From NCBI GenBank assembly GCA_965218975.1, contig OZ244717.1, forward strand, positions 544,001 through 608,000: 64,000 nucleotides of DNA. The letters are read 5' to 3'. The stretch is from Candidatus Oxydemutatoraceae bacterium. Lineage in GTDB: Bacteria > Pseudomonadota > Gammaproteobacteria > Poriferisulfidales > Oxydemutatoraceae. Shown piece after piece: positions 14,751 to 49,799 of the stretch. Within the stretch, counting starts at the first letter, position 1, and each line of letters starts with the position of its first letter. The notes under the pieces are model-generated. The model was not told where the DNA came from, did no database searches, and saw nothing but the letters and a program-made list of their open reading frames with translations. Made by a program: the position numbers and the translations under genes.

Positions 14751-15877
14751 TGTACGTGTCCAATACATTCCGGACAAATGAGGCCGGGTAAATAGAGCGG
14801 CTGCCGGGCAATGACTTGATACGGGGTCATGTAGTTTAATCCCCGCATGTAGTTTAATCCCCGGTGGGGGCGCTCACCGTTGTAGCGCTGCAAGTAATCA
14901 ATCATCTGCCGGTTAAACTCACCGATGTTTTCAAGCAATAACGCTTCCCGATAGTCGATAAACTCTTCCTGGACCGTACGGTTGAAGCGTTCGTTATAAG
15001 CATTCATCTTGGGGCACCCGGGTAAGTATAGCAGTGGCGGATCTTTCGTTGCCGAAGGTATTGATTGAATGCGCCTTGGAACTCACTGCTGTTGTCGGTC
15101 GATACTTGCTCGATTTTGCCCGGCAAGACTGTTTGCACCAAGGCGACAAACCGAGCCGCTTGGGCGCTATTGCCACGAGGCACTGCCGCCGCGAAGGCAA
15201 AGTGGCTTGAATGATCCGTTGCGGTCGGAATATAGCGTCGGCTGCCTTCGATAAAACGGATAATAGTATCGAAAGCAACACAGTGTCCGACATGCCTCGC
15301 ACCGGCTTTGCTATTCAGACGCGGGCGTGGCGGCTTACGTCGCAACGGGTTAGCTTGACCTTTGCGGTCCAAGCGCTGCAGTGAGCAACGCATCCGATCC
15401 GGGGCATCTGAAATCAAGCGCCCGATCGTCGTCGCACTCGGACACAACAGACCTTGCTTGCGGCACCACGGCAAGAGCAACACATAAATCTTATCCCGTC
15501 CCTAGTGGGGTATCTTAGGCGCAGACGACGGATTTCCCGGATCAGGGTTTGCGGCCAGACCCGCTGCTGGCGTTTACGCGGCGTTCTACTGCGGTCGTGC
15601 AAACTGCTCAACCCTCCCTGCCGATAGGCCAGGCGCCATGCATACAGCGTCGAACGACTGACCTTGAACGCATCCAGGGTTGCATCTAGTCCGTGTTTCC
15701 CCCAAAATAATAGGGCATCATATTTCTGTTGAAGCTTAGAGTGCTCATGAGCCTCTATTTTTGAAGCAAAATTGGCTCATATAGAAACCTTTGATGCGGT
15801 GGCCGATGTGCTGATATTGCATGTCGGTCACCTTTTTATTGACGTCCAAGAATCCAGTATGTATCTGGACACGTACA
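14751..15877 (-). mobile_element. Full-length IS481-family element with frameshifted transposase
   Basis: Terminal inverted repeats TGTACGTGTCCA(-/G)ATACAT at 14751 and 15877. Transposase split over several frames (HCVAFDT, TDNSSEF, NAYNERFNRTVQEE, YNGERPH). Confidence 0.92.
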
Positions 15878-21032: not shown

Positions 21033-21470
21033 ATGATTAAAACTAAGGAAAATACGATATATGACAAACCGCAATCTGCATAAGTTCAGAAACTTTTGGC
21101 ACTCCTGCCGACAGAAGGAGAAGCCTTGCAGGTCCAACATTATAGGCTATCGAATTCGGGGGTTGTATAGTGCCAGATACATATGGGACTCACGGCACGA
21201 CTCGAAAAGGTGACCGACATGCAATATCAGCACATCGGCCACCGCATCAAAGGTTTCTATATAAGCCAATTTTGCTTCAAAAATAGAGGCTATTATGAAC
21301 ACAACGGCTCAACAGAAACACGATGCCCGGTTATTTTGGGAGGGTTGTAACTCCCGAACGCATTCAAGGTCGGTCGCAGCACTTTGTACCGCTGGCGCCG
21401 ACGTTATCGCCGTACTGGACTCAGCGCCTTGCATGACCGCGGCAAAGCGCCGCGCAAGAGGCGTCGGCGG

Positions 21471-22185
21471 GTTGTCAGTAAAGTGCCTGTCGTCCATGAC
21501 GAGACTTGGTTCTGTCAATGAACGCCAGCCCCGACGTCTTTGTCGAGTCGTTCGCCGTTGAAAACCGATCGGTTTTCAGGGCACGTCTCACCCTGCGCCA
21601 GGCTTATCCGAATTTCGGCAGCAGTAAAGTCTTTGAGCTGATGAAACCGTTTTGTGTTTGTTGCAGTGTTATCAGCAAAGTGTCTGTCGTCCGTGACGAG
21701 ACTTGGTTCTGTCAATGAACGCCAGCCCCGACGTCCTTGTCGAGTCGTTCGCCGCTGAAAACCGATCGGTTTTCCGGGCGCGTTTCACCCTGCGCCAGGC
21801 TTATCAGAATTTCGGCAGCAGTAAAGTCTTTGAGCTGATGAAACCATTTTGTGTTTGCTGCCGGATTATCGGCAAAGTGCCTGTCGTCCATGACAAGACT
21901 TGGTTCTGTCAATGAACGCCAGCCCCGACGTCCTTGTCGGGTCGTTCGCCGCTGAAAACCGATCGGTTTTCCGGGCGCGTCTCACCCTGCGCCAGGCTTA
22001 TCAGAATTTCGGCAGCAGTAAAGTCTTTGAGCTGATGAAACCATTTTGTGTTTGTTGCCGTGTTATCAGTAAAGTGTCTGTCGTCCGTGACGAGACTTGG
22101 TTCTGTCAATGAGCACCAGCCCGACGTCCTTGTCGGGTCGTTCGCCGCTGAAAACCGATCGGTTTTCCGGGCGCGTTTCACCCTG
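21471..22185 (+). repeat. Tandem array with 197-bp period (element + short transposase segment), about 3.6 units
   Basis: Units end in TCACCCTG at 21595, 21792, 21989 and 22185. Confidence 0.96.
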
Positions 22186-22385
22186 ACGGACGGCGGGAGT
22201 GAGTTTCAAGGACAGTTTGCCCGGCTCATCCGGGAATCACCCGTGATTGAGCAGTGGCTGACCTATCCCAAGTGTCCAAAAATGAACGCGCACATCAAGC
22301 GCTTCAACCGCACCGTCCAAGAAGATTGTATCAATCATGCAGAAGACCTGCTATTCGCCGATACGGAAGCATTCAATGACCGGTT

Positions 22386-22644
22386 ATGAAACCGTTTTGT
22401 GTTTGTTGGTGGATGCTCAGCAAAGTGCCTGTCGTCCATGACGAGACTTGGTTCTGTTAATGAACGCCAGCCCCGACGTCCTTGTCGGGTCGTTCACCGC
22501 TGAAAACCGGTCGGTTTTCCGGGCGCGTCTCACCCTGCTCGTCCATGACGAGACTTGGTTCTGTCAATGAACGCCAGCCCCGACGTCCTTGTCGGGTCGT
22601 TCGCTGCTGAAAACCGATCGGTTTTCCGGGCGCGTCTCACCCTG
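22386..22644 (+). repeat. Two 5'-truncated copies of the ~175-bp element
   Basis: 22386-22537 and 22539-22644, both ending GTCTCACCCTG. Confidence 0.92.
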
Positions 22645-22811
22645 CACCGTCCTCATGCCAACAATGGACAGAAAGCACCGATCCGAATGTTACTGCCGAA
22701 CGCTTCCCCCGAAGCCTTTCAAAAATCCCATTTAGGGTGGCATCGTACAACTACTTGTCAGGTTGCGCGACGATACATATAATCGGCTACCTAAACTATT
22801 AGGAGGATTCA

Positions 22812-43964: not shown

Positions 43965-44798
43965 ATGAAAATCATTTATCCTGAATTTTCTTTGCGCGAG
44001 CAGTATCAGTTTGGTGTGGCGATTATGGTACGTGACCGACCTTATTATGTGAAACGCTGTTTCAACAGTTTGAAGAAGAGCGATTTAACAGATACATTGA
44101 TCATTGTGCTTGACGATGCCAGCGAAAATACTGAAACGTTTGAATTTGTTAAGAATTTTTCCATACCGGATGTCCCAATCATCAAGATTTTGCTTTCAAA
44201 GCACATTAACTTTAATCTTCATAACCATCTGAAGCTAATGTGGGATATGCTATCTGAAAAATATGATTGTCAATACCTTTGCGTTTTAGATTCGGATATG
44301 ATTGTAAAACAACATTGGCTAAAAGCGCTTTACACGTTGCATGAAAAGGGTAAGCAAAAACACGGTAAGTGTATTGTTAGCGGTTTTAACAATTGTTCAC
44401 GTCGTGTAATATCATGCTCTAAAGAATATCGTGTTACGCCTGTACTTGGCGGCGCAAATATGTTTTTCGGTGCGCTGCTATACCACCAAATGGTCAGATA
44501 TTGTTTATGCAATTTTTGGGATGAACATTTGTGTAAAGCGGTTCAGTCTAGCGTTAAACTGCTTATTACTCACCCTTCTGTCTGCCAGCATATCGGGAAA
44601 CAAGGTTTGTTTTCCGGAGGAAATTTCAAATTCGACTTTGCGTTAGATTACTCATGGGCCGACACTATTTGCTACTCTCCGTTCTATCTGTGTAGGGGGT
44701 ATTGGCCTATGCCGTTAAGTTTTTATAAAAGTAAATTTTTTAGCTGGTTGTATAGTGCCGGATACATATGGGACTCACGGCACGATTCGAAAAGGTGA
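43965..44798 (+). CDS. GT-A/GT2 glycosyltransferase with IS-derived C-terminus
   Basis: IIVLDDAS and a DSD (DxD) motif; the last ~16 codons lie inside the IS end starting at 44749. Confidence 0.8.
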   Translation: MKIIYPEFSLREQYQFGVAIMVRDRPYYVKRCFNSLKKSDLTDTLIIVLDDASENTETFEFVKNFSIPDVPIIKILLSKHINFNLHNHLKLMWDMLSEKYDCQYLCVLDSDMIVKQHWLKALYTLHEKGKQKHGKCIVSGFNNCSRRVISCSKEYRVTPVLGGANMFFGALLYHQMVRYCLCNFWDEHLCKAVQSSVKLLITHPSVCQHIGKQGLFSGGNFKFDFALDYSWADTICYSPFYLCRGYWPMPLSFYKSKFFSWLYSAGYIWDSRHDSKR

Positions 44799-46178
44799 CC
44801 GATATGCAATATCAGCACATTGGCCACCGCATCAAAGGTTTCTATATGAGCCTGTTTAACCTCAAAGATAGAGGCTCATGAGCACTGCATAAGCTCAGAA
44901 ACATTTGGCACTCCTGCCGACAGGAGGAGAAGCCTTGCAGGTCCGACATATAGGTTACCGAATCCGGGGGTTTCCCCGGGTCGCTAAAATCGGGCATAGT
45001 TGGGATACTATGACTTACGATGCAAAACAACGACTCAAAATTCTCACCTTCCAGGAAAACCATGGCATGGCCGCTGCCTGCGATGCATTCAAGATCGGTT
45101 GCCGTACCTTGTATCGGTGGCGGCAGACCTTGAGGGAAGCCGGACACAACGCAGCGGCACTGGCGCCGCGTTCGACCCGCACCGCATCGCCGACGGCAGA
45201 CGCGGCGCCCGCCCGGTTTGATGCAAGCAATCCGTCGTCTGCGCGAGCAGTATCCGAACTTAGGTAAACAGCCGGTGCAGAAGTTGCTTGAGCTGTAGTG
45301 CGAGCGCCACGGCCTAGCCAACCCCAGCGTCTCGACTATCGGGCGCATCATCGCCGCAGCCCCGATAAGATGCGTCGTATCCCGCAGCACCTCAATGCCC
45401 GCGGCCGGCGCCGACCGTACCGCTGGGTCAACAGGTAAAGTCTTTGAGCTGATGAAACCGTTTTGTGTTTGTTGGTGGATTGTCGGCAAGGTGCCTGTCA
45501 TCCATGACGCGACTGGGTTCTGTCAACAAGCCCCAGCCCCGACATCCTTGTCGGGTCGTTCACCGCTGAAAACCAATTGGTTTTCCGAGCGCGTCTCACC
45601 CATGACGAGACTTGGTTCTGTCAATGAGCGCCAGCCCCGACGTCCTTGTCGGATCGTTCGCCGCTGAAAACCGATCGGTTTTCCGGGCGCGTCTCACCCA
45701 CCGCTACGTGTTCACCTTCATTGACCCGCGCTCGCGCGTTGCGTTTGCGTGGGCTTCCACTACCCGCAGCAGTCGGCGCAGCGCACACGCCCTGCGGCTG
45801 TTGTGTGAACTGGTGCCGAAACCGATCAACTATATTTTGTCCGACAACGGCTCGGAGTTTATGAAGGACTTCGAGACCGAGTTGAAACAGCGCCGGACCA
45901 CCCACTGGTGGACCTATCCGAAGTCACCAAAGATGAACGCGCACGTCGAGCGCTTCAACCGCAGCTTGCAGGAATCATTCACGGACTACCGCGCAGCTTC
46001 TTTGCGAGAAGCTCCTGTTCATTGATATGGCCCCTGCTTTAACCGGGAATTGGTGCAATGGCTGGTGTTTTACAACACCCAACGCCCCACCATTCACTGG
46101 GGTTGCAATCCCCGATACAATCGCTCCTGACTCACCACCCGGAGTGCCAAATGTTATGGACCTATACAGCATCGTACA
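44749..46178 (+). mobile_element. Composite nested IS481-family relic
   Basis: Outer left end TGTATAGTGCC at 44749. Inner element 44886-46168 with IRs sharing AACATTTGGCACTCC. Outer terminal GCATCGTACA at 46169-46178. Fragments LSDNGSEF and PKSPKMNAHVERFNRSLQE. Confidence 0.9.
45435..45699 (+). repeat. One full and one truncated copy of the ~175-bp element
   Basis: 45435-45601 and about 45601-45699; the first copy carries the palindrome variant GAAAACCAATTGGTTTTC. Confidence 0.92.
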
Positions 46179-46195: not shown

Positions 46196-47062
46196 CTATA
46201 ATACCGTAGGCAGCTTCTCCAGAAAGATTCCAAGAAACACAATCAATCCGAGCCAAGCGTTATTAGTAAAGGCGCTAAGGCATGCAGTCGCTTCGCGCTC
46301 GCGGATTTCCCATAACTGATACAGCGCAAGAACGGCAGCGATAGCGATGCCGGCATAAAACCATAGGCCAAGTCCGAATAATTTTCCGGCAAATAAAAGT
46401 AGTGTCAATCCTGCGGTGTGAAACAGGCCGATAAATACTCTGTCATAGCGTCCGAATAAGATAGCGGTTGATTTAATTCCCGCTTCGAAATCATCGTCGC
46501 GATCAATTAACGCATAAATGGTGTCGTACGCAACCGTCCAACAAATATTCGCCGCATACAGTAGCCAGATGGCGGTAACTGGAAAGGTGTTGTTTTGTGC
46601 GACCCATGCCATTGGAATCGCCCAGCCGAATGTGACCCCAAGATATACTTGCGGTAGGTGATGCCAGCGTTTCATGAGCGGGTAGCTAATAATGAATGTA
46701 AGTGCGACAAGCGACATTAGAATCGTCGCAATATTCATTATTAACACCAATGTGAATGCAATCAACAATAAAATGGCGGCGAGCAGGCGCGCTTCAAAGA
46801 CGCTGACTGCACCGGTTGCAAGCGGTCGGTCGCGGGTGCGCTTCACTTGCGCATCAAATTCGCGATCGACATCATCGTTAATAACACAGCCGGCTGAACG
46901 CAATAGGATGACACCGAGCACAAAGACAACGAAAACGGTACGGCTCGGCTGTTCGTCGCCCGCCAGCCATAGCGACCATAATGTCGGGGCCAACAACAGA
47001 TAAATGCCGACCGGACGGTTCAATCGCATCAGTGCGATGTAGTTGCAAATTTTATCAAGCAT
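46196..47062 (-). CDS. ubiA: 4-hydroxybenzoate polyprenyltransferase
   Basis: RLNRPVG, AGCVINDDVDREFD..V.RT..RP, YDTIYA..D..DD. Confidence 0.96.
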   Translation of the reverse strand: MLDKICNYIALMRLNRPVGIYLLLAPTLWSLWLAGDEQPSRTVFVVFVLGVILLRSAGCVINDDVDREFDAQVKRTRDRPLATGAVSVFEARLLAAILLLIAFTLVLIMNIATILMSLVALTFIISYPLMKRWHHLPQVYLGVTFGWAIPMAWVAQNNTFPVTAIWLLYAANICWTVAYDTIYALIDRDDDFEAGIKSTAILFGRYDRVFIGLFHTAGLTLLLFAGKLFGLGLWFYAGIAIAAVLALYQLWEIREREATACLSAFTNNAWLGLIVFLGIFLEKLPTVL

Positions 47063-47454
47063 TATTTATGATGAGTATAATGTCATAGAGATTAATCTTA
47101 TGGCAATTCGCGATTATTGTGGTAGGCAGCCCCAAATTGCCCCTAGTGCTTTTGTCGACGAGATGGCGCTAGTGATCGGTGACGTCGTAATCGGCACCGA
47201 TAGTTCGGTTTGGCCGATGAGCGTTATCCGCGGCGATGTGCAGCCGATTCGAATTGGTGCACGCACCAACATTCAAGATGGTAGTGTTTTGCATGTTACC
47301 GGCAACGATAAGATTCCCTCCGATGTTTTCCCGCTGCAAATTGGTAATGCGGTTACGATCGGACACGGTGCGATATTGCACGCATGCACGATCGGAGACA
47401 TGAGTTTAATCGGTATCGGAGCAATTGTTTTGGACGGTGCAATCGTAAGTGGCG
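47022..47454. repeat. 433-bp direct repeat, left copy
   Basis: Appears identical to 49367-49799 and abuts the IS left IR. Confidence 0.95.
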
Positions 47455-47459
47455 CTTGA
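47100..47459 (+). pseudogene. 3'-truncated duplicate of the gamma-carbonic anhydrase-like gene
   Basis: Identical to the 5' part of 49445-49972; terminates at the IS end. Confidence 0.9.
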
Positions 47460-49366
47460 CTTCGTAGGTTTTGTCTCGTAAGTGATTGATATTATTGCCT
47501 TCAGGATTCTCAAGGGCACTACATTACGGTGTTGTTTGTAGCCCTCCGCGCTCAGCTTCCCCCAGGGCGTGACTTGTCGGGAAGCGGGAACGGAGCTTCG
47601 TTCCATTTCAGGCCGACACTACGGTAGATCCTGTTGGCGTCTGCGCTCGCGCGGCTCGGCATCGCATACCGCTTCTGTGTGTCGGTATGTGCCAAGATGC
47701 TCAACTGCAAGGTGTCGAGCTCGCGCCGGATCCGCTCCGCGCTCATCGGGAAGCCCAGCGCTTTGAGCCGCCGGCGCAGCTGCTGCAAGCAGCAGAAGGC
47801 CATATAGCAGATCGCAATGTGCGCCTGGATACGCCGCGGCTTCCAGTGAAAGATCGGGCGGATGCAAAGGTCATGCTTGTTAGTGCGAAAGCAATGTTCT
47901 ACTTCCCACAACCGACGGTACTGCGACAGCAATTCCTTTGGCGCCATCTCCTCGTTGCCGTGTGCGATGATTGCGCGCAGGCCGTCCCAACGCGCCGCAT
48001 CGGCCACCTTGGCCGCATCAATCTTAACCCGGCCCTTTGCGGGGAAGCTTAAGTAACAGGCATAGCCGCGCGCCACGAAACCTGCCGGGCGCTCGCTGCG
48101 TTGATACTTCCGGCGCAACTGTGACAATATGCGTTCCCGAACTTCTTGATCCTTGCGCGCGCGCCGGCGTGAATAGGTGACTATGATCCGCCGGCCTTCG
48201 TGGCGAATCATCCGGTAACGCAGGTCCTGCGTTTTGAGCCAGCCTTGATCGTCTGCTGCACTGAGGGCCTGCAGCTTGATCTTGGCCGGGGCCGACTTGA
48301 GACGATAGCCGAGCACATAGGCCAAGCCCTGCTCCTGCAGGAATGTCTGGTTCTCACGGCTCAGCATCGCCGCATCGGCCACTACTGTAAATACAGCACC
48401 CGGATGTCGCTGTTGCAGGGTTGTCACTGCCTGCATCAAGGTTTTGCCCTCAAAGGTGTTGCCCGGCAACAGTGCGTAGTCCACCGGCAGACCGTCGCAG
48501 GTCGTCATCAGTGCCAGCAACACCTGGCAGCGGTGCGGCTTGCCGTCCTTACTATAACCTTTCGCGCGCAACGGGTCCTCTTGCTCGCTCTCGAAGTACA
48601 GGGTCGTGCAATCAAAGAAGAACACCTTGAGGGGCTGATCATACAACTTCTGTGCCGCTTGATGAGACTGTTCCCGGATGTGCGCAATCACCGCCTCCTC
48701 AAGGTGATCCATAGTCTGGTAAACCCGGTCGAGATTGAGCGAAACGCCGCTTCGTTCGAGCTCGCACACCGTAGCGCGCTTGCTCTGCGGCTGCGCGATA
48801 CGCGCCAGTACCAGCTCGCGCAGGATGCGGTTCGCTACTGTGCGCCGCGCCCCCAACACCTGGTTCCAACCCAAGTGCGAATAAATCTGCGTGAACGCCT
48901 CGCGCACCCCAAGTATCAGCCGCATCTCCTCACGGCATTCGGCAAGATCTACCCCGAAGCGCGCCAAACGCGGTGCGTGCCGTGCCTCAGCTGCGAGATC
49001 CGCGTACTGCTTCGGTGTGAACAGCGACTGTTGTGCTGTACCGGCTTGGCGCAGCTCTTCCAAGGTGACCTCGCCGAGCTTGCGCAAAGATGCAAGCTGC
49101 TCGGGACTGTCGGCAGCGCCGATATGCCGAACCACACGCTGACGCGGACCATCGGCAGTGCGCACGGAGCGCACGATCTGCAAGCGAGTGCGGCCACGTT
49201 CGGGATCATATTTTTCACGCAAGTACATAGACCCGAATGATAACCCAAAATCCAAGTGAAAACAAGCCTGGGGGCACTACAATAGGGTTTTTCGGCAGCG
49301 TCCGGGTAACCCTATGATAATAAAAGATTTATTTTTTGCCCAAAGGTCAAAACCTACGAAGTCAAG
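47455..49366 (-). mobile_element. IS1634-family insertion sequence (1912 bp)
   Basis: 19-bp perfect terminal IRs CTTGACTTCGTAGGTTTTG and a single long DDE transposase ORF. Confidence 0.9.
47552..49228 (-). CDS. IS1634-family DDE transposase (intact ORF)
   Basis: FFDCTTLYFE, GYSKDGK, VVADAAM, YRRLWEVEHCFRTNK..L.IRPIFHW...RIQAHIAIC. Confidence 0.92.
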   Translation of the reverse strand: MYLREKYDPERGRTRLQIVRSVRTADGPRQRVVRHIGAADSPEQLASLRKLGEVTLEELRQAGTAQQSLFTPKQYADLAAEARHAPRLARFGVDLAECREEMRLILGVREAFTQIYSHLGWNQVLGARRTVANRILRELVLARIAQPQSKRATVCELERSGVSLNLDRVYQTMDHLEEAVIAHIREQSHQAAQKLYDQPLKVFFFDCTTLYFESEQEDPLRAKGYSKDGKPHRCQVLLALMTTCDGLPVDYALLPGNTFEGKTLMQAVTTLQQRHPGAVFTVVADAAMLSRENQTFLQEQGLAYVLGYRLKSAPAKIKLQALSAADDQGWLKTQDLRYRMIRHEGRRIIVTYSRRRARKDQEVRERILSQLRRKYQRSERPAGFVARGYACYLSFPAKGRVKIDAAKVADAARWDGLRAIIAHGNEEMAPKELLSQYRRLWEVEHCFRTNKHDLCIRPIFHWKPRRIQAHIAICYMAFCCLQQLRRRLKALGFPMSAERIRRELDTLQLSILAHTDTQKRYAMPSRASADANRIYRSVGLKWNEAPFPLPDKSRPGGS

Positions 49367-49799
49367 AATCGCATCAGTGCGATGTAGTTGCAAATTTTAT
49401 CAAGCATTATTTATGATGAGTATAATGTCATAGAGATTAATCTTATGGCAATTCGCGATTATTGTGGTAGGCAGCCCCAAATTGCCCCTAGTGCTTTTGT
49501 CGACGAGATGGCGCTAGTGATCGGTGACGTCGTAATCGGCACCGATAGTTCGGTTTGGCCGATGAGCGTTATCCGCGGCGATGTGCAGCCGATTCGAATT
49601 GGTGCACGCACCAACATTCAAGATGGTAGTGTTTTGCATGTTACCGGCAACGATAAGATTCCCTCCGATGTTTTCCCGCTGCAAATTGGTAATGCGGTTA
49701 CGATCGGACACGGTGCGATATTGCACGCATGCACGATCGGAGACATGAGTTTAATCGGTATCGGAGCAATTGTTTTGGACGGTGCAATCGTAAGTGGCG
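49367..49799. repeat. 433-bp direct repeat, right copy
   Basis: Appears identical to 47022-47454 and abuts the IS right IR. Confidence 0.95.

Follow-up and report, generated by a model that had tools for sequence, protein, structure and literature searches.

A hairpin-rich repeat housed in decayed IS481 elements: probably a passenger rather than a self-mobile parasite

How does a non-coding repeat come to lie, at locus after locus of one bacterial chromosome, inside the transposase genes of a single insertion sequence (IS) family, in the place of pieces of those genes? The question is raised by a stretch of 64,000 bases from a Candidatus Oxydemutatoraceae bacterium, here called the window (bases 544001-608000 of a single-contig genome of 2,081,000 bases, 47.7% G+C and 99.4% complete), for which a reading of the letters by themselves (the original prediction) had proposed a ~175-bp element that occurs only in IS481 transposase genes as their parasite or inactivator. 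The repeat in question, called E below, is in the explanation that we hold to be probable, if well short of certain, a lineage-specific and recombination-prone passenger of IS481-family relics that multiplied without an enzyme of its own, and not a self-mobile parasite.

The repeat and its IS481-family hosts

A genome search with one 197-nt array unit as query gave 330 matches, or 320 if only those of at least 40 nt are counted, and a finer decomposition gave 318-321 units of E, which sum to 33,569 nt (1.6% of the genome) and form 95-96 clusters, each with between 1 and 12 of them. A single unit measures 107-110 nt, starts with CCTGTCG and ends in TCTCACC(CTG); the larger size first proposed takes in IS481 sequence, up to 87 nt of it, carried along on the 5' side. 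With this many copies at ~80-100% identity to one another, a chance origin of the family is excluded.

Tabulated across the genome, IS481-family relic DNA surrounds or adjoins 95 of the 96 E clusters: an IS481 protein match lies at most 1 kb away in 76, and 19 of the 20 clusters without one directly adjoin relic-family DNA on at least one side (15 on both), most of these 19 being miniatures, akin to MITEs (miniature inverted-repeat transposable elements), in which just the IS ends are retained. One cluster, at genome position 393270, is of ambiguous context. A random spread of copies through intergenic DNA, the pattern against which the original prediction had been set, was not seen, E being confined to an IS481-type context. 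The repeat runs in the transposase sense in all but five of 318 copies, the inverted five sitting at three loci. The earlier statement that all copies lie inside relics in the transposase sense is true for all ten in the window, and the accompanying claim that none occur elsewhere holds there too; across the genome it is qualified by the inverted copies and by one array that duplicates 222 nt of non-IS DNA. This array (genome 1035012-1035696) has a period of 303 nt and three units, each made of 81 nt of E (bases 30-110) and the 222 nt of non-IS DNA and joined via the 3' end of E and CTG, and it is the only case seen of E duplicating host sequence.

The family was not found in any of 40 related genomes, the genus itself having one representative here, and a 36-letter degenerate pattern of E had no exact match in the species-representative genomes of GTDB or in a metagenome collection; it is likewise absent from the plasmid and phage records searched. 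Rfam holds no family for it at gathering score, and even at E-values up to 10 only three chance-level matches were returned, the best of them to the narK RNA on the opposite strand (E-value 0.15). To this extent E is undescribed, as had been supposed. In short-read contigs from four samples of one study the unique flanks of the loci are present with zero differences, the contigs ending at the IS edges, and runs of two further studies contain fragments of E and of the relics as well; no RNA data set was listed among the public holders of these sequences, and array lengths are those of the assembly, since no short-read contig spans an array.

The hosts are thoroughly decayed. A profile search found no intact IS481 transposase in the genome: 118 fragments match the IS481 model, the best with 90 bits against a cut-off of 224, and they score below that value because every copy is fragmentary; intact homologues in relatives, at 160-198 bits, likewise stay under it. 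IS481 (NF033577) is the best NCBIfam match of all window fragments tested (29.6-76.6 bits), and Pfam recognises pieces of rve, rve_3 and HTH_32. Clusters were mapped on two rulers, namely the intact homologues of relatives and an element-free coordinate reference pieced together from segments. Both termini, TGTA(T/C)AGTGCC... and ...GGCATCGTACA, are kept by 32 relics, and a perfect 5-bp target duplication flanks five of these (0.13 expected by the null), a test that is unable to separate decay in place from transposition of relics already holding E. The relics are genuine transposon copies, with termini and target duplications.

At least three IS481 subfamilies can be told apart, here called IS-X (window relics 7620-8644 and 21164-22749), IS-Y (14751-15877) and IS-Z (the body of 44749-46178), and the existence of hybrid relics, both IS-X/IS-Z and IS-X/IS-Y, means that the subfamilies do recombine. 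Many relics have shrunk to miniatures of 382-690 bp that consist of IS ends and E arrays, for example at genome 425070, 858254, 1862422, 1959118 and 513908. With both IS ends, no functional transposase, a small size and tandem arrays of up to 12 units, such relics have the make-up of a MITE with an internal minisatellite. Two other miniatures, at genome 841377-841993 and 879723-880269, share one architecture, with unique sequence that is nearly the same to either side of them, and were copied within a larger segmental duplication, not by transposition. An isolated 67-nt remnant of an IS-X right end lies at window 56988-57054; it is 87% identical to 22686-22752 and has neither an E unit nor a transposase match beside it.

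Junctions, window loci and native site

The 3' end of E is constant within 2 nt, CACC(C)(TG), and it is joined to at least ten different partners, which span three IS481 subfamilies and, once, host DNA. Four of them are places in the transposase gene: LHRPH (X1008; 47+ junctions at 56 loci), LTDGG (X780; 25+ junctions, 27 loci), LRQAY (X345; ~36 junctions, 21 loci) and CPSV (X440; 17+ junctions, 19 loci). Another E is joined at its base 1 in 32 junctions (period 107) and at its base 9 in 82 (period 98). The remaining partners are an IS-Y site, at which the module is inverted, no bases are lost and the 5-nt CAGGG is shared, two sites in IS-Z, each of them still found empty in other copies, and one CTG in host DNA outside IS481. 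CTG starts eight of the ten partners, with 3-5 nt shared with the end of E, so the fixed 3' end with CTG joining that had been noticed in the window is seen genome-wide. At 12 loci E is joined to X1025, an additional class that has the appearance of a secondary deletion by slippage.

The 5' junctions are of fewer kinds, each lying at a microhomology of 3-8 nt between the recipient and the donor flank (CGGAT, GCCGCA, TGAAA, ATG, CAG(G)T or CGC.GCGC), and between the 5' and the 3' junction 7 to 86 nt of recipient sequence are missing. The 5' ends had been called ragged, and their limits do vary; they are not truncations of E, but variable lengths of co-copied IS481 flank. The CTG found on both sides of E represents microhomology with target bases lost, not a target-site duplication, and, as had been stated, E has no terminal inverted repeats, its inverted repeats being those of internal hairpins. 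One join, FLRLA to LRQAY, is an ordinary crossover at an 11-nt near-repeat.

All ten copies that the original prediction placed at three window loci are present there, and the relics that hold them, together with the one that holds none, are as follows.

21164..22749, + strand: IS-X relic with six E units, from TGTATAG... to ...CGTACA; IS481 is its best NCBIfam match, and it keeps transposase residues ~1-88, 101-122 (three times), 240-307 and ~318-350 in the numbering of a relative's intact protein
21486..21595, + strand: E copy 1 of that relic, with 15 nt of hitch-hiked flank before it (21471-21485), attached behind RRRR via a CGG(A/G)T-type microhomology, and followed on its 3' side by CTG and the LRQAY codons
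21596..22185, + strand: composite tandem array (period 197 nt, 3.6 copies, 93% matches), in which a block of the LRQAY..MKPF codons, a 28-30-nt flank and E occurs three times, with E at 21684-21792, 21880-21989 and 22078-22185; LTDGG, which natively lies downstream, adjoins the third of these E
22183..22388, + strand: piece of the IS481 catalytic core (LTDGGSEF...FNDRL), at 98% identity with the element-free reference
22389..22644, + strand: double-E block, with a 39-nt hitch-hiked flank (last MKPF codons and 28-nt flank), then E at 22428-22537 and 22534-22644, head to tail via CCTG with period 107; in the transposase it takes the place of 22 nt (WEYLAWYK), and its end is at the CTG of LHRPH
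7620..8644, - strand: IS-X relic that is truncated at its 5' side and holds two E modules, with E at 8443-8551 and 7954-8063; both modules have MKPF and a 28-nt flank, the second coming after the FLRLA to LRQAY short-homology crossover; its FNDRL/LHRPH site is element-free
44749..46178, + strand: hybrid relic, whose left end is IS-X-like (91.5% over 130 nt) and whose body belongs to the divergent IS-Z
45436-45699, + strand: E module of the hybrid relic, with 30 nt of IS-X codons, a 28-nt flank and two E of period 98 (45494-45601 and 45600-45699), substituting for 86 nt of IS-Z and ending in CACC(C) before RYVF
14751..15877, - strand: IS-Y relic, element-free; CAGGG at ~15616-15620 is the empty site, which holds an inverted E module at three other genome loci

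The joins quoted from the window are real (RRRRV/LRQAY, FLRLA/LTDGG, FNDRL/LHRPH and ../HRYVF, with NLG/PCPS corresponding to MKPF joined through the module to CPSV), and coding sequence is substituted there rather than cleanly interrupted. Measured against element-free alleles elsewhere in the genome, which are rare at 2 to 7 segments per site, the losses are 8-33 nt after RRRR, 18 after MKPF, 22 after FNDRL and 86 in the hybrid relic.

The 5' side of the modules points to where E may have started. At one site it stands immediately before the catalytic LTDGG codons, which we take to be the motif with the second catalytic aspartate of DDE/rve enzymes; two element-free alleles read ...LQPVKYI/LTDGGSEF... 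there, and element-bearing ones ...QPGKV/E/LTDGGSEF.... The 5' flank of E comprises 13-40 nt that end in GKV codons, sometimes extended by the MKPF codons or by the entire LRQAY..MKPF stretch, and a GKV-type flank precedes E at all other sites too. Since all modules retain some of those upstream codons, we infer that the position before LTDGG, in one IS481 lineage and possibly in a sister subfamily, was the birthplace of E. The flank is often lengthened by a mini-repeat of 10/21 nt (CGGATTGT-type), which is found at window 21655-21683, 22389-22427 and 45466-45493 and genome-wide; its copy number differs between loci, giving flanks of 28, 38, 49, 60, 78 and 91 nt, so that it forms a second, smaller slippage-prone array attached to E.

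Other repeats share this genome. One family of ~25 copies and ~1.9 kb includes a copy (genome ~1020-2700) that encodes a putative transposase-like protein of 559 residues, and window 47022-49799 belongs to it, with identical 300-nt direct repeats at 47022-47321 and 49367-49666. A second palindromic repeat of ~25-38 nt (CCTG(C/T)CTGTG...CAGACAGG-type) interrupts one E at genome 405371-405486, recurs nearby in the right flank and in read contigs, and may be another hairpin repeat family. Window 6136-7161 holds a 255-nt unit four times in tandem at 99% identity, unrelated to E, and a 56-kb stretch at genome 930805-986786 has more than 2,000 internal self-matches; this and several other highly repetitive stretches of 6-16 kb probably hold giant repeat-rich genes.

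Spread of the repeat and competing explanations

The number of insertions that must be explained is far smaller than the number of copies. Each junction class recurs at 6-56 of 109 loci, so that a dozen or so founding events suffice, and triples of idiosyncratic junctions occur together, one combination at 13 loci and another at 11. Head-to-tail tandem joins account for 82 + 32 junctions. Nearly all of the ~320 copies need no insertion of their own, since they either came down with the relic that holds them or passed from relic to relic by recombination. The nearest relative of an E unit lies in its own locus in only 9% of cases, and the closest unit among other loci has the same 3' site in 39% (26% by chance). 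In a tree of the left arms the junction classes at site A are clustered, with 13 changes against a shuffled mean of 18.6 and none of 200 shuffles as low.

In the explanation that we favour, E would first have lodged in one IS481-family lineage, directly upstream of the LTDGG codons, and would then have multiplied by three routes. The first is passive: relics bounded by terminal inverted repeats, many of them shrunk to MITE-like elements of 380-700 bp, would have been copied or homogenised, and in this way identical internal junctions would have been carried to many loci, the composite relics being dispersed by a since-vanished transposase acting in trans, by recombination among ~100 copies, or by both. 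The second would be head-to-tail expansion via CC/CCTG microhomology together with unequal exchange, giving periods of 98, 107 and 197 nt. The third, needed for about a dozen events, would be the patching of one copy from another: a polymerase engaged in the repair or replication of one IS481 copy may have switched via 3-8 nt of homology to a donor upstream of E, copied through E, left the donor at its end and re-annealed on the recipient via CTG/CCTG, a few to 86 nt downstream of the point of departure. The fixed exit could arise if the copying complex collapses or is released once the newly made hairpins fold, or if the template has a defined end; of these we propose the release by folding hairpins, while the template with a defined end is the core of the original prediction.

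Template switching among paired IS copies is suggested because microhomology is present at both junctions and a short recipient stretch is replaced, and because donors and recipients are homologous or homeologous IS copies with hybrid relics between subfamilies. Such 3'-anchored copying is the best mechanism available for the joins, whose order, like the mechanism itself, is reconstructed from the junctions. The suggestion that E was copied from a single-stranded template or by template switching, rather than by DDE transposition, thus fares well in part: template switching fits and the junctions are not of the DDE kind, but RNA and DNA templates cannot be told apart from the letters. The restriction to IS481 would follow from the birthplace, from pairing among ~100 related copies and from the neutrality of scars in dead transposase genes.

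E is predicted to fold into three hairpins and to finish in a tail of ~12 nt, the third hairpin being built on a perfect palindrome of 18 nt that lies ~10 nt from the fixed 3' end. As RNA the two strands have fold z-scores of -2.6 and -2.8, and as DNA the z-score is -2.0. Each pair shows 0-3 compensatory changes across 261 distinct copies, and up to 116 of these copies have broken outer pairs in hairpin 1; with compensatory changes almost absent and these pairs broken, selection on the structure is not shown. No tRNA- or tmRNA-like gene was found in E, and its promoter and terminator signatures equal the shuffled expectation in number. A derivation of E from a diverged or inverted piece of IS481 was tried and rejected, since alignments against element-free IS-X, IS-Y and the IS481 genes of relatives stay within shuffled controls; the reverse strand encodes a GERP-like peptide reminiscent of the transposase C-terminus, and one alignment (L011) scored 34 against a maximum of 29 among shuffles. 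The type IIS site CGTCTC, so placed that a 1/5 cut would fall at the 3' end of E, was also dismissed: the genome shows no depletion of this hexamer (rank 1689 of 2080, observed/expected 1.06), and many copies read CGGCTC instead.

The alternative that survives best, unlikely as we consider it, makes E a non-autonomous element, mobile now or in the past, with IS481 transposase genes as its targets. Copies would be made from single-stranded RNA or DNA whose 3' end is defined, either through template jumping or through target-primed synthesis, and the enzyme, acting in trans, would be one that the genome no longer has or one of a type not yet recognised. Much of what has been described would suit such an element, namely the one 3' end in at least ten joins with CTG at the start of eight of ten targets, the variable 5' extent, the entry into three subfamilies, once inverted and clean with the empty site preserved, and the position of the palindrome. 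Placed so near the end, the 18-nt palindrome of E resembles the ends of rolling-circle elements. The enzyme is what is missing from this picture. Six-frame family searches of the whole genome, positive in control genomes, gave no match to RVT_1, Y1_Tnp, Transposase_20 (IS110-type) or TnpB, and a parent copy beside a reverse transcriptase (RT), HUH/Y1 or IS110 gene, which the original prediction had envisaged, does not exist in this genome, which is a single contig, 99.4% complete, and lacks matches to all of these and to TnpB; Y2_Tnp and Zn_Tnp_IS91 also gave no match, but the control genomes were silent in the same searches, which makes them uninformative. About a dozen events account for all copies, the target is replaced, contrary to what HUH transposition or retrohoming predicts, the 5' junctions lie at microhomologies in IS481 flank and not within E, and no copy outside the IS481 context defines a free element. 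A stronger form of the same idea, in which E is a novel kind of non-autonomous bacterial mobile module with a defined 3' terminus, copied together with more or less of the upstream flank, through a single-stranded intermediate or by a jumping polymerase, and pasted at CTG sites in several IS481 subfamilies as a parasite that colonised and destroyed them and helped to extinguish all IS481 copies, we regard as unlikely. The parasite or inactivator of the original prediction keeps its restriction to IS481-type elements and probably loses its agency, inheritance explaining the copies and no enzyme gene having been found.

Quite improbable, in our judgement, is the opposite extreme, that one ancestral composite relic had all E sites, that unequal crossing-over and slippage did the rest and that there is nothing special about the 3' end. 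The junction classes common to many loci, the plain crossover between FLRLA and LRQAY at its 11-nt near-repeat and the tandem arrays, typical of slippage, are all as expected on this account; it is weakened by the single 3' end (within 2 nt) that joins at least ten unrelated partners, including two subfamilies with preserved empty sites and host DNA, because unequal exchange between homologous units cannot make those first joins. Least of all is E to be seen as a module selected by the host, for instance a structured RNA or DNA site that silences or truncates IS481 transposase expression: it does disrupt the transposase always, at the LTDGG motif and two other places of the gene, and its hairpins are conserved with z-scores of -2.6 and -2.8, but the 0-3 compensatory changes per pair, the outer hairpin 1 pairs broken in up to 116 of 261 copies, the lack of promoter or terminator signatures above shuffles and of an Rfam family, and transposase genes already so frameshifted and deleted that nothing is left to silence make this highly improbable.

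Several observations weigh against the passenger explanation that we prefer. The exit lies ~10 nt past the last hairpin in at least ten joins, which is more regular than usual template switching, and three events entered subfamilies with little DNA identity at the junctions. The flank at the native site is only ~71% identical (17/24) to the element-free allele, the rest of those relics being 92-96% identical, so that the first insertion may have been in another subfamily. Only five of the 32 two-ended relics keep a target duplication, and the enzyme searches leave room for a gene since lost. In the left-arm tree, weakly resolved with four of 32 inner branches well supported, the classes are not clean clades (9 changes for X311, 7 for X337), which means that inheritance was blurred by recombination or that some junctions recurred. 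Finally, no single-copy E event was seen in unique intergenic DNA, and the IS481 enrichment is explained by argument only.

Relation to known systems

If the passenger explanation is right, this genome keeps the record of a transposon-born hairpin repeat that became a genome-wide family of 1.6% of the chromosome without an enzyme, hitch-hiking on IS copies, tandem expansion and microhomology template switching being sufficient. It would then offer a testable bacterial case for satellite-like arrays that arise from mobile elements, and for the question whether structured DNA can dictate the point at which a copying polymerase lets go. For annotation there is a warning in it, as ~100 loci that look like a novel mobile element are decayed IS481 copies. 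Were E a mobile parasite after all, it would be the first known repeat specialised on a transposase gene family; full-text searches of the literature, supplements aside, gave no account of any repeat confined to the genes of IS481.

Several familiar classes can be set aside. The unit of E is no MITE itself, having no terminal inverted repeats and no target-site duplication, and no group II intron or retroelement fragment, given no RVT_1 match and no Rfam match beyond chance. As an integron attC site or cassette array it fails because its ends are not complementary and three separate hairpins are found instead; as a repetitive extragenic palindrome (REP) or bacterial interspersed mosaic element (BIME), because 95 of 96 clusters are in or beside IS481 relics. 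E resembles elements of the IS91/ISCR/Helitron and IS200/IS605 types in that it lacks terminal inverted repeats and a regular target duplication, has a subterminal hairpin near a fixed end, prefers a short target (CTG), takes flank along at its other, variable end and forms head-to-tail arrays; it is unlike them in that the target is replaced in most events and both junctions are microhomologous with the donor flank. An IS200/IS605 element or the guide-RNA region of a TnpB was rejected, as there is no Y1_Tnp or TnpB and, among the events examined, a clean insertion only in that of IS-Y.

For the joins, the closest parallels are template switching and templated insertions at breaks (PMC11724301; PMC7954356), along with the group II intron-like RTs that act in bacterial microhomology-mediated end joining (MMEJ) (bioRxiv 10.1101/2022.03.14.484287). 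As far as these accounts go, E shares with templated insertions the patches taken from a nearby or homologous template, the microhomologies of 1-8 nt and the loss of a few to tens of target bases. Templated insertions are normally one-off and variable at both ends, whereas the patches of E have one constant end and the repeat then amplifies, and for the RT-dependent MMEJ route there is no RT gene in this genome.

For the arrays, eukaryotic tandem-repeat MITEs and transposon-derived satellites provide a precedent in which a transposon disperses the repeat and the array then expands (PMC3879986; PMC6947457). Short tandem arrays in non-autonomous transposons are common to both; the eukaryotic cases belong to other transposon superfamilies, and 3'-anchored microhomology copy-paste is not described in the accounts at hand (PMC3879986; PMC6947457). 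The nearest described counterpart of E is a minisatellite in a bacterial MITE, BrickBuilt of Porphyromonas gingivalis, which has a 23-nt unit, is always intergenic and, in the description drawn on here, has no stated parent IS (PMC4596501). Like BrickBuilt, E is a species-restricted tandem repeat in small, inverted-repeat-ended non-autonomous elements with many copies per genome. As far as that description reaches, E differs from it in its hairpin-rich unit of 107-110 nt, its place in recognisable IS481 transposase remnants and its fixed recombinogenic 3' end, as well as in having been copied between sites and subfamilies with the target replaced. What sets E apart, as a repeat inside an IS family in decay, is the unusual regularity of its probable copying by microhomology, anchored at the 3' end.

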